Source: a virus. From it: DNA of 5,002 bases. Below, one piece after another: positions 120 through 4,917 of the stretch. The notes beneath the pieces are model-generated. The model did not search any database. It was not told where the DNA came from and saw nothing but the letters and a program-made list of their open reading frames with translations. Location of the stretch: the IMG/VR virus record IMGVR_UViG_3300045988_101410; one strand, written 5' to 3'. Each line of letters begins with the position of its first letter. Positions within the stretch are counted from its first letter, which is position 1. Made by a program: the position numbers and the translations under genes.

Positions 120-1048
120 CCTGTAAACGGAGAAAATATCTTAATTAATTCTCCAGTACCAAATAAATCTTGTCTTAAACCTGTATTGCTATCCTTTCCA
201 CTTGTTAAAGGGTAACGATTATATAAAATATTGCCTTCCGTCTGTGTCTTAAAAGTCTGGGCATTATAATTATTAATACGAGCGGAAATCTCTCCAACTT
301 CTGCAAGTCCTTTTTGTGTCAAGGCTCCTTGTAATTGCCTTAAAGAAATACCATTCTGTTGGGCAACTTGTGCCATTAACTCCTGTGCAGCAGCGTTACG
401 TTGTGCGGCCGAAGCAGACATCAAAGCAGCGTCTCCAGTTTTTTGTAAATAAACAATTTTAGCAGCCAACTCCTGAACAGAATTAGTAATACGTTGCTGA
501 ATTTCGGAAATTTGCATTTTATTCATAGCTGTTTCATTTTCCTGCTTTTGTTTAGTATAATTAGTCATTGCGCCTAAATAACTAATATTTGCATTATTAT
601 ATTCTACGGCAGAATTAGTTTTAACTTGGTCGTTATGGGCTTCTATCATGCGAGCTTGGGAATTAATCTGATTAGCGTCTGCATTAGTTAAATTTGCTTT
701 TGCATTATCTTGTTTTACTTGTAATTCTTTTTCTAAAAGCTCAGTCTGTTTCTTAGCAAATGCAGAATTAGCAATCTTATTTAAAGCACCGGAAATATCA
801 GGGGCGGTTACATTTGCAGTAGCACCAGAAATACTACCACCAGCAGAATTAGTAGCAGATAAAATAGGATTTAAACCTGCTTTTCGCAAATCTTCAACTT
901 CCCATTGATGACGATTTTGCATAGACTCTCTTTGAGCATTAATAGAATTAGCTTGCATTTCAAAAGCGGCGGAATTTGATTGATTAGCACCCCAAATACT
1001 AGAACCAGCACCAATAACAGCGCCAGCAATATCACCTAAAAAACTCAT
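107..1048 (-). CDS. VP2: VP2 minor capsid / DNA pilot protein (313 aa from the second Met; the ORF track starts 3 codons earlier at 1057)
   Basis: 316-aa ORF with a Gly/Ala-rich hydrophobic N-terminus (FLGDIAGAVIGAGSSIWGA) and a long Q/N/A-rich coiled-coil-like body, typical of gokushovirus VP2 (the phiX174 H analogue). It lies directly downstream of VP1. An AAGGAG site abuts the first ATG with 0-nt spacing, but sits 9 nt before the ATG at 1046-1048 (the protein begins MFFM), so the second Met is the likelier start. Stop is TAG at 107-109. Confidence 0.8.
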   Translation of the reverse strand: MSFLGDIAGAVIGAGSSIWGANQSNSAAFEMQANSINAQRESMQNRHQWEVEDLRKAGLNPILSATNSAGGSISGATANVTAPDISGALNKIANSAFAKKQTELLEKELQVKQDNAKANLTNADANQINSQARMIEAHNDQVKTNSAVEYNNANISYLGAMTNYTKQKQENETAMNKMQISEIQQRITNSVQELAAKIVYLQKTGDAALMSASAAQRNAAAQELMAQVAQQNGISLRQLQGALTQKGLAEVGEISARINNYNAQTFKTQTEGNILYNRYPLTSGKDSNTGLRQDLFGTGELIKIFSPFTGFMD

Positions 1049-1074
1049 AAAAAACATCTCCTTTATATAAAAAT

Positions 1075-1093
1075 AAGGGGGATAAACCCCCTT
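1075..1093 (-). terminator. G5/C5 stem-loop (aaggggg-ataaa-ccccctt) between VP1 stop and VP2 RBS; terminator/attenuator-like
   Basis: Perfect 7-bp stem with a 5-nt loop. On the coding strand it is followed by ATTTTTAT and then AAGGAG-ATG of VP2. It sits 6 nt after the VP1 stop codon. Confidence 0.5.
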
Positions 1094-1098
1094 TATTA

Positions 1099-2667
1099 TT
1101 AAAAATGGTCAACAAGTCCAGGCACGCTATAAATCGGCATAGGACGTACACAACTAAGAGAAAAATAACAATCTAAAAAAATTTGTGGTTCATTCTGCAC
1201 CGCCAAAACACGAGCCACAGGCGGATTATCCACTATAAACTCCGCATTCAACTTAGGAAGCTCCGCAAACTCTTGAGCAAGGTGCCAAACATCTAAGCTT
1301 TGCGCATACGTACTCCTAAACTTACCAGTAATTTGACTAGGGAAATAACGATATTCTGCCCAGCGTTCCTGATATCCAAATACTTTATCATCATCAGCAG
1401 TACCTTGAGCATAAATTTCCTTATTTAACACAGCCTGCTCACCTAAATGAGCGAGCGCAGGCCAATAATAATCAAATCGAGTCTGACGGCTCCACATTCT
1501 ATTTAAGCCTTGCTGATATGTTAAATCTGCACGTACATTTACAAGACCTATAATATAACCATGTTCCACAAAACTTTTTGTAAAGCCATTAACTTTATCA
1601 CCGAGAACACCATAAGCGGCGAGGTTACCTTGTGGGCTTGTAGTATCCGTTGCGGAAGTCTGTTGCACTGGATTTATATTTATACGTGTAGAAGAACCAC
1701 CTAAATATTCAGGACGTTGAAGCCTAGCGTCCGGAGAAATGACTCCGAAATGCGCTCTTAAAATTTCTGTATAACGTGTACCACCTCTAGCATCACGCTC
1801 ATAAAGCTTTTGAAGCTGGAAAGCTTGTCTTAAGCTATTAATAGTGATAGCAGTCGCACTAGATAAATCTACAGTAACACCACTTTTAGACATATCTATG
1901 CGATTAGTAGGAACAGTAATAGTGGGATTAACAGAAGAACCACCTTGCCAAGTCCAATTCGGATTATGAGACAAACCATTACCATCAGTATTTACACTTA
2001 AAGTATAAGAACCACCCGGAACAGACAAAGTACCATTTAAATTTGCAATAGAACCAAGCGGCAATTCTACTCCGGGGCCTTTTTGTGGCCATGGCAAACA
2101 TGAAGTAAAATAATCATGTCGTTTACCACGTCTTACAAGATTATATTTATTAATAGGGTCGGGACCATCTCCGGTCGGCACCTCTAAACTATCCTGCAAA
2201 TTTTCATCGCGAAACCACTCATTATAAATAAGGTTATAAGCTCGAAACGGAAGAGCATTAATTTTGTCTAAACTTACACCAGTAGGAATACCAAAATAAT
2301 CCGCAATAGAGCCAACCTCATGTTTGCCAGCTTCTAGGGTTGGTATTAAAAAGTCTGTACTGTCTCCAGGGTTTTTCTGTTCTCCGTTAAATTTTTGCCA
2401 GTTATCCCAAACAAGACGATTGGGAACAAAAAAGAAGAACGTTTCTAAATACATATTATCCATAAAAGGAACAACAGGAGTACTCAAACGACCAAATAAA
2501 GTAGCCTTTAAATTAAAAGTATCTCCCGGAAGAACTTCGTCAACAAAAAATGGGACAAGATAACCACTATCAAGCGTGGTTTTATAACCGTGGGAACGAT
2601 TAAAGCTACTACGTTGTATATCAGCTCTCGGAATTTGACTAAACAAATGTTGATTACTAGATTTCAT
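1099..2667 (-). CDS. VP1: VP1 major capsid protein (Microviridae F-family), 522 aa
   Basis: Largest ORF. Its size and position are typical of a gokushovirus major capsid protein. ATG at 2667 is preceded by AAGGTGA at 7-nt spacing. Stop is TAA at 1099-1101. Context is a complete microvirus gene set (Rep VP4, scaffold VP3, VP2). Confidence 0.88.
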   Translation of the reverse strand: MKSSNQHLFSQIPRADIQRSSFNRSHGYKTTLDSGYLVPFFVDEVLPGDTFNLKATLFGRLSTPVVPFMDNMYLETFFFFVPNRLVWDNWQKFNGEQKNPGDSTDFLIPTLEAGKHEVGSIADYFGIPTGVSLDKINALPFRAYNLIYNEWFRDENLQDSLEVPTGDGPDPINKYNLVRRGKRHDYFTSCLPWPQKGPGVELPLGSIANLNGTLSVPGGSYTLSVNTDGNGLSHNPNWTWQGGSSVNPTITVPTNRIDMSKSGVTVDLSSATAITINSLRQAFQLQKLYERDARGGTRYTEILRAHFGVISPDARLQRPEYLGGSSTRININPVQQTSATDTTSPQGNLAAYGVLGDKVNGFTKSFVEHGYIIGLVNVRADLTYQQGLNRMWSRQTRFDYYWPALAHLGEQAVLNKEIYAQGTADDDKVFGYQERWAEYRYFPSQITGKFRSTYAQSLDVWHLAQEFAELPKLNAEFIVDNPPVARVLAVQNEPQIFLDCYFSLSCVRPMPIYSVPGLVDHF

Positions 2668-2747: not shown

Positions 2748-2754
2748 ACGGATT

Positions 2755-2790
2755 AAAAAAACACCATTTCCAAAAGTATCAAAATGGTGT
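2755..2790 (-). terminator. Intrinsic-terminator-like hairpin plus T-run after VP3 (coding strand)
   Basis: Inverted repeat acaccattt (2761-2769) / aaatggtgt (2782-2790), a perfect 9 bp with a 12-nt loop. On the minus strand it is followed immediately by TTTTTT (plus-strand A-run 2755-2760). Confidence 0.45.
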
Positions 2791-2792
2791 CA

Positions 2793-2840
2793 GTCGGGAC
2801 AGTTACATCAAGTAAGGCTGTCCCGACCACACATTTTTTT
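2793..2840 (+). terminator. Plus-strand (antisense) intrinsic-terminator-like structure: 10-bp GC-rich stem plus T7
   Basis: gtcgggacag (2793-2802) / ctgtcccgac (2818-2827) is a perfect 10-bp stem with a 15-nt loop, followed by cacaca and ttttttt (2834-2840) on the plus strand. On the coding strand the same stem lies 11 nt after the VP3 stop. Confidence 0.4.
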
Positions 2841-3578: not shown

Positions 3579-4478
3579 TTAAATTTCTCCTTCCAAAGGT
3601 CTAATTAATTTTTGTGCTTTTAAAACTTGTATAGCTTCTTTAACTTCCATACGTTCCCAACTTTTTTCATGTTCATCAGATTGTAACGCAAGAAATTTTC
3701 GGCGAGTTTTAATATTGTGCATTTCCTCAGGGTTCCACTCATCATAGATTTTATCATAATAACGAGGGGGCTTGCACTTTATCCCATTTCTAATAACAAC
3801 ATAATCATGAGAGTAAACATCATTAGCAAATTTCTCTAACCAACCACGACCGATACCGGGTCGGCGAGACATTACAACATATTCGGGTTCTCTACCCTTA
3901 TAATGTTCTTCTGCCATATCTCCAGTAATTTTTTTAGTTACATATCTTGCAACATAAGCGCAAGACTCAAATGTAACATTGCCGATAGTAGAGAACCCGA
4001 AAGGCCATAACTTTTCTATCGAGGGGGAACGATAAAGAATATTACCATGTTTATAACTCCAAGGTTTTAAATCGGGGGGTTCAAAACCAAAAAATATAAC
4101 GTGGTAATGTGGTCTTTGTAACTGTTCTCCATATTCACCGCAAGCAAAATAACGAATACCTTCACCAAATTTTTTACGTAATCTCTTAAAAAAAAGTGTT
4201 AAAGCACGCTTATCTAAACTACCATTAGGGGGTAAATTTTGGGGGTTATAAGTAAGCGTTACAAAACAATTTTTCTCATGAAGGGTAGCCTCATGCACAC
4301 AACGAACAGCCCATTGACGGCTTTTTTCTAAACGACAACCAATACATTGACCACAAGGCACTAAAACCGGCATATCTATATAACCTTTTTTGGGATTAAA
4401 AACGATAGGCCAAGCGCCAGTATCGGGATTTCTACCCTCTTTACTTCTATAGCCTGTTATAGGGTGATAACAGGTCAT
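3579..4478 (-). CDS. VP4: VP4 rolling-circle replication initiator protein (phiX174 gpA-like HUH endonuclease), 299 aa
   Basis: It has RCR motif I CFVTLTY (aa 71-77), HUH motif PHYHVIFFG (H124-Y125-H126) and motif III with two tyrosines AYVARYVTKK (Y175 at 3954-3956, Y179 at 3942-3944; compare phiX174 gpA YVAKYV). An N-terminal CGQCIGC cysteine cluster is also present. ATG at 4478 follows AAGGAG at 11-nt spacing. Confidence 0.92.
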   Translation of the reverse strand: MTCYHPITGYRSKEGRNPDTGAWPIVFNPKKGYIDMPVLVPCGQCIGCRLEKSRQWAVRCVHEATLHEKNCFVTLTYNPQNLPPNGSLDKRALTLFFKRLRKKFGEGIRYFACGEYGEQLQRPHYHVIFFGFEPPDLKPWSYKHGNILYRSPSIEKLWPFGFSTIGNVTFESCAYVARYVTKKITGDMAEEHYKGREPEYVVMSRRPGIGRGWLEKFANDVYSHDYVVIRNGIKCKPPRYYDKIYDEWNPEEMHNIKTRRKFLALQSDEHEKSWERMEVKEAIQVLKAQKLIRPLEGEI

Positions 4479-4797
4479 AAAATTAACAACTCCTTATTAA
4501 GGACGTGGGGGATACACCCCCACACCCCTGTAATTTAGTACTACGGGTGCATAACAAGTCTGCACCACTCCGCACTAAATACGTATAACTATACTATTAA
4601 GTTACATGACTGTTGTTACTTAACAGCATATATTGTAATTATAAATGTTAAAACAAATAAAATATACAACAGTACGTATTTAGTTAAATTAATATCTTTC
4701 TTAAACCTAGCTATAATATCACCTCATCAAATAATCCTAAAATGTAACAATAAAAATAATAAAAAAATAATAAACAAATACAAAAGAAATAAACGCA
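4479..4797. promoter_or_regulatory. 319-nt AT-rich non-coding region between the small basic ORF and VP4; candidate origin/promoter region
   Basis: No ORF with a credible ribosome-binding site. It contains the G5/C5 hairpin, a 6-bp ggtgca/tgcacc stem (4546-4566), an imperfect ttaagttac/gttacttaa hairpin (4598-4624) and long A/T tracts. It is the only large non-coding stretch in the genome. Confidence 0.4.
4505..4523 (-). promoter_or_regulatory. Second G5/C5 stem-loop (gtggggg-ataca-cccccac), 12 nt upstream of the VP4 RBS
   Basis: Perfect 7-bp stem with a 5-nt loop. It has the same architecture and the same spacing to an (A)TAAGGAG site as the 1075-1093 hairpin. A C-rich tail cccctg follows. 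Confidence 0.45.
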
Positions 4798-4917
4798 TTA
4801 AATTCTAAAGCCTCCACGCATAGGCTTAGCACGCAAGTTTAAACCTTTTGTTTTTTCCGCAGTCCTAGAAAATAACTTCTTGGACTTTTTTTTATTTACC
4901 TTGCTACGTTTAGCCAT
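4798..4917 (-). CDS. 39-aa highly basic small protein, candidate DNA-binding/packaging protein (phiX174 J / Chlamydia-phage ORF8 analogue); absent from the ORF track
   Basis: Translated by hand: ATG at 4915-4917 (complement) gives MAKRSKVNKKKSKKLFSRTAEKTKGLNLRAKPMRGGFRI, then TAA at 4798-4800. It has 10 K and 6 R in 39 aa and an aromatic/hydrophobic C-terminus like J protein. A TAGGAGGT Shine-Dalgarno site lies 7 nt upstream. The N-terminal 11 codons are duplicated at 34..2 by the terminal redundancy, so the gene crosses the circular junction. Confidence 0.6.
   Translation of the reverse strand: MAKRSKVNKKKSKKLFSRTAEKTKGLNLRAKPMRGGFRI

Follow-up and report, generated by a model that had tools for sequence, protein, structure and literature searches.

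Two stem-loops of nearly the same sequence stand ahead of two genes of a gokushovirus, one before VP2 and one before VP4, and the question they raise is whether they do anything for the phage and, if so, at which level. The window, meaning the whole stretch of DNA that we analysed (5,002 nt), comprises the circular 4,883-nt genome of a gokushovirus plus a terminal redundancy of 119 nt. The genome has 36.4% G+C and a non-coding share of ~12%, and all of its genes are carried on the minus strand (Table 1). Microviridae virion DNA is the strand of mRNA sense, so the minus strand of the window represents both the mRNA and the packaged DNA. A sequence-only reading of the window had proposed that the stem-loops are transcript 3′-end or stability hairpins, attenuators setting the VP1:VP2 ratio, or recognition sites for Rep or packaging. 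Its assignment of the flanking genes VP1 and VP4 was right, as judged by Pfam, and VP2 could be assigned by position and relatives. For VP2 we take ATG 1048 as the likely start: it lies 9 nt past GGAG and fits the N-terminus MSFLGD of relatives with annotated VP2 (tblastn), while ATG 1057, the start in the list of open reading frames and in frame with 1048, directly abuts GGAG.

Table 1. Coordinates of genes, hairpins and signals in the window, with counterparts in relatives.
Feature	Position	Strand	Remarks
VP2	1048-107	(-)	Identified from its position and from relatives annotated 'similar to VP2'
VP2 ribosome-binding site and likely start	AAGGAG 1063-1058; ATG 1048-1046	(-)	
U-rich tail of hairpin 1	1065-1074	(-)	AUUUUUAUAU on the coding strand
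Hairpin 1	1075-1093	(-)	Coding AAGGGGG-UUUAU-CCCCCUU, -11.6 kcal/mol
VP1 stop (1101-1099) and 5-nt gap to hairpin 1	1094-1101	(-)	TAA-TAA-TAA in frame
VP1	1099-2667	(-)	Pfam Phage_F, E 3e-194
VP3	3387-2839	(-)	
VP5	3577-3296	(-)	
VP4/Rep	3579-4478	(-)	Pfam REP_ORF2-G2P
VP4 ribosome-binding site and start	AAGGAG 4495-4490; ATG 4478-4476	(-)	
Hairpin 2 core	4505-4523	(-)	Coding GUGGGGG-UGUAU-CCCCCAC, -13.4 kcal/mol
Extended 13-bp helix of hairpin 2	4499-4529	(-)	G-U pairs on the sense strand only
Neighbouring hairpin	4546-4566	(-)	GGUGCA-GACUUGUUA-UGCACC; 16 nt upstream of the extended helix of hairpin 2
Counterparts of the neighbouring hairpin	L003 ~4775-4820; L229 ~388-433; L231 ~165-210		
Small basic J-like ORF	Across the genome junction	(-)	

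Re-reading of the plus strand confirmed both stem-loops, aaggggg-ataaa-ccccctt at 1075-1093 (hairpin 1) and gtggggg-ataca-cccccac at 4505-4523 (hairpin 2), each with a 7-bp stem containing five G:C pairs and a 5-nt loop, and both in non-coding spacers. The pattern GGGGGN5CCCCC had just two matches in the window (1077-1091 and 4507-4521) and none in 200 dinucleotide-preserving shuffles. C5 runs occurred on the plus strand solely within the two hairpins; G5 runs by themselves were not rare, that strand having eight G runs of at least five. As RNA of the coding strand both hairpins folded (hairpin 1, -11.6 kcal/mol; hairpin 2, -13.4 kcal/mol), with local z-scores (-1.4 and -2.5, respectively) that are modest because any shuffle of a G5/C5 19-mer folds too. 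Searching the whole window against Rfam 15 at a permissive threshold gave no match at either hairpin; the sole sub-threshold match, inside VP4, was AilA_thermometer (29 bits; gathering score, 81).

The distance to the ribosome-binding site, put earlier at 11-12 nt, was approximately right. Read along the coding strand, 9 nt separate hairpin 1 from TAAAGGAG, giving the 11 nt up to AAGGAG, and 8 nt separate hairpin 2 from TAAGGAG, which gives 9 nt. From stem end to start codon the distance was exactly 26 nt for both, with the VP2 start taken as ATG 1048; among relatives it spanned 26-27 nt (hairpin 1) and 26-33 nt (hairpin 2), and the distance to the Shine-Dalgarno sequence ranged from ~3 to 14 nt. 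Most of the gokushoviruses sampled had neither hairpin, with no spacer or hairpin at either junction, which marks the elements as optional and lineage-specific. Given this variation, the claim that the same geometry occurring twice implies a shared function proved to be a weak one.

The core 15-mers of the two hairpins were identical at 14 of 15 positions, and their 46-nt modules of hairpin plus ribosome-binding site aligned with a score of 36, compared with a shuffle maximum of 22. The bulk of this score came from the hairpin core and from generic Shine-Dalgarno/AUG context. The 15-mer GGGGGTNTATCCCCC was present in at least 120 unrelated IMG/VR viral contigs, at many sites in the order stop, hairpin, T-run, ribosome-binding site and ATG. 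T-rich tails followed at 23 of the 79 sites that were readable with flanks, and several sites were nearly like hairpin 1; contig L136, for example, reads taataataaag-GGGGGTTTATCCCCC-ctttattttaaggag...atg. Since the 15-mer is common in unrelated phages, the resemblance of the twins is what two independent uses of a cheap and common design would give. Judged on sequence, paralogy and convergence are indistinguishable for the two modules, and the cassette may possibly have been duplicated within the genome.

With moderate confidence, and by analogy with phiX174, we read both stem-loops as spacer hairpins that punctuate a polycistronic microvirus transcript at the RNA level. phiX174 has four leaky Rho-independent terminators of this type, in its J-F, F-G, G-H and H-A spacers; 20-40% of transcription ends at TJ, TF and TG and ~70% at pA-TH, which produces an expression gradient (10.1101/2020.03.05.979765). 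Like these, the hairpins of the window are short and G:C-rich and lie in non-coding spacers, which are few in so small a single-stranded DNA phage, between a stop codon and the next ribosome-binding site. Hairpin 1 takes the position of TF, after the major capsid gene, and hairpin 2 that of TH, before the Rep gene. The two phages differ in that phiX174 belongs to another subfamily, the Bullavirinae, with no homology of spacer sequence, and TF is longer than hairpin 1 and doubles as ori(-). Function has been measured in phiX174, whereas in the window we show the anatomy, position and conservation of the hairpins, their replacement by others and the commonness of the motif, and infer that termination or stabilisation takes place at them, and how efficiently. 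They are probably functional, yet ordinary, spacer hairpins of the phiX174 type. A literature search on gokushovirus terminators, hairpins and origins found nothing specific.

Hairpin 1 has, by its sequence, the form of a textbook intrinsic terminator. In coding order, the VP1 stop TAA is followed by TAATA, AAGGGGG-UUUAU-CCCCCUU, AUUUUUAUAUA, AAGGAG, 9 nt and the AUG of VP2; 5 nt separate the stop from the hairpin, and AUUUUUAU lies between the stem and the VP2 ribosome-binding site. Of the features of intrinsic terminators, hairpin 1 had the stem and loop size, the U-rich tract and the position downstream of a stop; both hairpins resemble canonical terminators in stem (5-14 bp) and loop (3-8 nt), and hairpin 1 also in its U-rich tail. 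A terminator scan of the window gave 10 matches, against 3.4 +/- 1.7 expected, and scored hairpin 1 as terminator-like on both strands. Its matches at 1093-1075 and 1091-1078 were the only coding-strand matches within a spacer. Spurious terminator-like matches on the plus strand arose because of a 12-nt tandem repeat (GGTTCCGGAGTT/GGTTCCGGTTTT, ~5 copies, 2870-2929) at the 3′ end of VP3, which suggests a scaffold protein with a repetitive C-terminal tail.

The sigma-70-type consensus scan for promoters, the consensus of which may not be the host's, found no convincing promoter near either hairpin on the coding strand, and the boundaries of transcription units are therefore guesses. It detected no promoter-like site in the 50-nt VP1-VP2 spacer, the nearest on the coding strand lying inside VP1 (1524-1496). 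Elsewhere, an A13 run on the plus strand (U13 in the coding sense) at 2709-2721 is followed by TTGTCA-17-GAAAAT (2681-2709), just upstream of the VP1 ribosome-binding site. Judged by its sequence, it could be a late promoter, for which there is no other plausible candidate.

We consider it likely that hairpin 1 is a leaky terminator that also stabilises a 3′ end. RNA polymerase leaving VP1 would meet the 7-bp G:C-rich hairpin and then AUUUUUAU, and some fraction would terminate, with the hairpin protecting the 3′ end of the VP1 mRNA. Terminators near a stop codon are repressed by ribosomes, and in E. coli the repression of lambda tR2 is almost complete at a stop distance of 5 nt (PMC4824070). 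Hairpin 1, unlike canonical terminators, stands at just this distance, so a ribosome finishing VP1 would often block its folding, and termination would be leaky. The polymerases reading through would then suffice for the expression of VP2, for which the scan found no promoter-like site in the 50-nt spacer. The outcome would be more message for VP1, present at 60 copies per capsid, than for VP2. Internal terminators are known to set operon stoichiometry in Clostridia, for example in the ABC importer operons of Ruminiclostridium (PMC9045158), and hairpin 1 resembles them in following a highly expressed gene and preceding one needed in smaller amounts (PMC9045158).

Comparison with relatives bore on this reading. 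In L001 and L002 the stem-loop of hairpin 1 was identical at 19 of 19 positions, against 81-89% identity in the VP1 and VP2 flanks (last and first 300 nt, respectively); L001 had one additional T in the loop. L004 and L093 are much closer to the window, with VP1 97% and VP2 99% identical and flanks 96-97% identical at the nucleotide level, yet their VP1-VP2 spacer was just 38% identical and held an unrelated 11-bp hairpin instead (GUGCAUAGGUU-(21 nt)-AACCUAUGCAC, then UUUUGUUAU). This cassette also occupied the VP1-VP2 junction of L231, a genome with a VP4 only 64% identical, and it carried the T-rich tail TTTTGTTAT in both L004 and L231. That a 97%-identical relative has hairpin 1 swapped for an unrelated hairpin with a T-run argues that structure is kept, and not the G5/C5 sequence. 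The presence of the same ~60-nt cassette in L004/L093 and in L231, across a VP4 identity of ~64%, points, at the level of sequence, to recombinational exchange of spacer cassettes. Exact-pattern scans of IMG/VR for further copies of the L004 cassette and of hairpin 2 returned only contigs already among the relatives compared.

Other relatives showed the same pattern of different sequences in one place. L003 and L229 had two different G5/C5 hairpins at the VP1-VP2 junction, one of which (GGGGG-AUAAA-CCCCC on the coding strand) carries the loop of the window inverted. GC-rich hairpins after VP1 were also found in L077, L086, L089, L068 and the cultured phage phiMH2K, so that phiMH2K, L003, L077, L086 and L089 share with the window a G-run/C-run or GC-rich hairpin between the VP1 stop and the VP2 ribosome-binding site. 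Other gokushovirus spacers differ in holding unrelated sequences with one or two hairpins, and many lineages have no spacer or have a small hydrophobic ORF. No VP1-VP2 spacer was present in a large clade with 67-70% VP1 identity and in several other relatives. Instead of a spacer, members of that clade (L010-L054) have a TAAGGAG that overlaps the VP1 stop and, ahead of VP2, a small ORF (~20 codons) that encodes the hydrophobic peptide MALVIWLAVVGTVVIFALGQ. Wherever a spacer exists, the feature that persists after the VP1 stop, ahead of the VP2 ribosome-binding site, is a stable hairpin with a T-run. An automatic best-hairpin survey of VP1-VP2 spacers, in which window lengths were fixed at even values and ORFs had to reach 25 codons, served as a source of examples only.

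The suggestion that the stem-loops are 3′-end or stability hairpins, or attenuators of VP1:VP2, thus fits hairpin 1, which follows the VP1 stop, has a U-rich tract, was picked up by the terminator scan, is conserved between diverged flanks, is replaced by a hairpin with a T-run in L004 and L231, and has a precedent in TF. If leaky punctuation is indeed the role of the two hairpins, uncultured gut gokushoviruses would set the amounts of capsid, pilot and replication protein in the manner of phiX174, with short leaky spacer hairpins, and these hairpins would be interchangeable cassettes swapped between lineages by recombination. This would be of use in annotating microvirus genomes and in designing synthetic ones, and would leave the general view of these phages unchanged.

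The absence of the hairpins from most gokushoviruses would also be consistent with neutral palindromes that have no function, such as relics of recombination, as would the finding that just 14.6% of phiX174 terminator mutations are detrimental (10.64898/2026.07.25.740675). We think this very unlikely, because none of the 200 shuffles gave a match, both hairpins fall within the non-coding ~12% of the genome, the stem-loops do not vary against flanks that diverge by 11-19%, a compensatory change occurs in L228 (described below), and other hairpins, T-runs included, substitute at the same position.

The sequence that the twins share, G5-U(N)UAU-C5, might alternatively mark sites recognised by a single factor, whether Rep/VP4, the small basic DNA-binding protein or the packaging machinery. 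The 14 of 15 identical core positions, the alignment of the 46-nt modules above the shuffle maximum and the invariance of both cores within the clade would all agree with this. We nevertheless regard it as highly improbable: the VP1-VP2 hairpin is an entirely different one in L004 and L093, although these retain hairpin 2, L003 and L229 have other loops and the opposite orientation, L231 lacks hairpin 2, and the loops UUUAU and UGUAU are without the ACTTG motif of the origin-like hairpins described below. The identical 15-mer is also common in unrelated phages, and the alignment score is mostly that of the hairpin core with generic Shine-Dalgarno/AUG context. The proposal of Rep or packaging recognition is accordingly not supported, with the G5/C5 sequence dispensable at the VP1-VP2 junction of the near-identical L004.

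For hairpin 2, the punctuation reading takes a weaker form. The hairpin sits at the boundary where the late genes would end and the Rep gene begin, in the coding order ...ACAGGGGU, GUGGGGG-UGUAU-CCCCCAC, GUCCUUAAU, AAGGAG, 11 nt and the AUG of VP4. Three of the 8 nt in its tail, GUCCUUAA, are U; it has no U-tract, in which it differs from canonical intrinsic terminators, and it was not flagged by the terminator scan. The nearest annotated stop, that of the ORF for the small basic protein, lies ~275 nt upstream; a possible 33-codon ORF ends ~90 nt before the hairpin. The missing U-tract and the distance from the nearest annotated stop mean that hairpin 2 is not a canonical intrinsic terminator. 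In phiX174, TJ (before gene F) reads AGGGGC-UUCG-GCCCCU, then UACUU, then GAGG in the sequence record; the stem is followed by UACUUGAGG, and its 8-nt tail UACUUGAG has 3 U, as does that of hairpin 2. Hairpin 2 thus has the form of TJ in its geometry, its U-poor tail and its place just before the ribosome-binding site, an analogy that makes a weak, U-poor terminator or a 3′-end hairpin its most likely role. TH reads GCCUCC-AAAUCUU-GGAGGC, then U6 and AUG, and promoter pA abuts its stem; its 3′ arm is itself the ribosome-binding site of gene A, whereas in the window that site is outside the stem and no promoter is evident. A promoter-terminator overlap like pA-TH was considered for hairpin 2 and found unsupported, with no promoter in the scan and no convincing -35/-10 pair in the J-VP4 spacer when read by eye.

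The core of hairpin 2 was identical in 8 genomes of the clade (19/19 in L001 and L002). Its 3′ flank had three variable positions, all of them C/U opposite G, so that the 13-bp helix stays fully paired, and in L228 (VP4 83% identical) the outer G:C pair was replaced by U:A. Counted over the helix, 100% of cells were paired, with one double and three one-sided changes among six distinct sequences; in the shuffle control 83 of 500 did as well, which is not significant with six distinct sequences. The covariation check that had been proposed thus yielded one compensatory pair, in hairpin 2, together with positional replacement by other hairpins, but remained statistically thin. L003 and L229 had CGGGGU-GCA-ACCCCG at this position; L231 lacked hairpin 2, and L230, L231 and L235 had other hairpins directly 5′ of the VP4 ribosome-binding site. 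Hairpin 2 was absent from more distant relatives, and those with a J-like gene abutting VP4 had no hairpin there.

As RNA, hairpin 2 folded better in the sense than in the antisense strand (locally, -21.3 versus -16.7 kcal/mol), as did the region 4480-4600 (-43.4 versus -31.5 kcal/mol), while with DNA parameters the two strands were nearly equal; this leans towards a role at the RNA level. The region as a whole was unusually structured (z = -3.4; 0 of 200 shuffles folded as well).

Hairpin 2 may also serve as a 5′-leader hairpin for the VP4 mRNA. A stronger version of this idea dispenses with termination: hairpin 2 would protect mRNA from 5′-end-dependent decay or tune the loading of ribosomes, and hairpin 1, once the RNA is processed, might do likewise. 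Both stems do lie 26 nt before start codons and 9-11 nt before the strong Shine-Dalgarno sequence AAGGAG, hairpin 2 has no U-tract, the extension of its helix by sense-only G-U pairs points to RNA, and a hairpin of some kind stands immediately 5′ of the VP4 Shine-Dalgarno sequence in each of L230, L231 and L235. Bacillus ermC and aprE mRNAs, which are stabilised by 5′ stem-loops combined with strong ribosome-binding sites, would be precedents. We hold the idea to be rather unlikely, since the scan found no promoter-like site just upstream, the hairpin-to-Shine-Dalgarno distance ranges from ~3 to 14 nt in relatives, and a Firmicutes host is only weakly hinted at by labels of metagenome-assembled genomes (MAGs). 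These labels are those of MAG contigs assigned to Veillonella or Clostridia (L221, L220, L223 and L224) that carry VP1 relatives 50-74% identical. In L221 (URNX01000007.1) the relative lies at the end of a 91-kb bacterial contig, and the labels weakly suggest a Firmicutes host and, possibly, a prophage. Host hints from the genome-collection scan were at MAG level alone, and a metagenome scan with VP4 added just three more close relatives.

Three further hairpins, two of them origin-like, lie in the spacer between VP3 and VP1 and in that ahead of VP4. At 2793-2827 (-), in the VP3-VP1 spacer, gucgggacag-CCUUACUUGAUGUAA-cugucccgac (DNA loop CCTTACTTGATGTAA) is followed by TGACACC and resembles the phiX174 origin CAACTTG^ATATT. 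A hairpin with an ACTTG[AT][AT] loop occurred in 79 of the 99 loci surveyed, nearly all of them this VP3-VP1 spacer element, for which we found no description in the literature searched. On its sequence, it is probably the viral-strand origin with the Rep nick site, and is the best candidate for these. Directly after it, at 2754-2790 (-), stands a hairpin (ACACCAUUUU-...-AAAUGGUGU) followed by a U7 run, with ACACC/GGUGU ends that are conserved and an interior that varies (L228, L229, L231, L232 and L235). This is a third terminator-like element, which possibly marks the end of the VP4-VP5-VP3 unit or belongs to the origin.

The ACTTG of the phiX174 nick motif CAACTTG^ATATTAATAAC was absent from the loops of hairpins 1 and 2 and present both in the 2793-2827 hairpin and in the neighbour of hairpin 2 at 4546-4566. 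The loop of this neighbour, GACUUGU(U)A, was conserved in relatives down to 64% VP4 identity and resembles both phiX174 ACTTG^AT and the loop of the near-universal 2793-2827 gokushovirus hairpin, while its stems were wholly rebuilt in L003, L229 and L231 (6 to 19 bp, of different sequences). In the L003 counterpart the loop and 3′ arm agreed with the first VP4 codons in 19 of 20 positions, a match that 0 of 500 shuffles reached. The 4546-4566 hairpin could be a pseudo-origin, a site of Rep autoregulation or the relic of a duplicated VP4 start. As a candidate for the viral-strand origin, with hairpin 2 included, it was rejected: the survey of 99 loci put the widely conserved ACTTGATG-loop hairpin in the VP3-VP1 spacer, so hairpin 2 does not lie beside the main origin candidate. 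We also considered that hairpin 2 might be one half of a rep leader that responds to Rep, with VP4 binding the 4546-4566 pseudo-origin, as mRNA or DNA, and limiting its own synthesis together with the GC clamp of hairpin 2. This is a long shot; if true, it would be an autoregulatory circuit of a kind not described for Microviridae. The near-universal ACTTGATG-loop hairpin and the lineage-specific ACTTG-loop hairpin just upstream of rep are more interesting leads than the twin stem-loops.

Action of the twin hairpins in the packaged single-stranded DNA, as entry sites for host priming and part of a complementary-strand origin, has its model in phiX174, where the TF hairpin in the F-G spacer, after the major capsid gene, is also the ori(-)/PriA site (10.64898/2026.07.25.740675). 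The G5:C5 cores are equally stable in DNA, and the marked structure of 4480-4600 would suit such a site. We judge it distinctly unlikely, as a 19-nt hairpin is far below the size of known minus-strand origins of single-stranded DNA phages, a near-identical genome has an unrelated hairpin in place of hairpin 1, many relatives are hairpin-free at both sites, the extension of hairpin 2 needs G-U pairs, which are weak as G-T in DNA, and more elaborate, widely conserved structures lie elsewhere (2754-2827). For punctuation hairpins, the same precedent makes a dual role at the DNA level possible, and, with ~15% of terminator mutations harmful, weak constraint is to be expected.

Two minor features were noted around the VP4 start. 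An inverted repeat at 4441-4486, CCTGTTAT-caccct-ATAACAGG, covers VP4 codons 2-9 and places the start of the rep ORF inside a hairpin. Positions 4616-4717 (-), in the spacer that separates the J-like gene from VP4, may hold a small ORF for a hydrophobic peptide, (D)IIARFKKDINLTKYVLLYILFVLTFIITIYAVK*, which is conserved in L001 and L002. Starts of the ATG, GTG or TTG type are absent from it; a GAGGTGAT motif is followed by ATT or ATA. Its product could be a lysis or membrane peptide.
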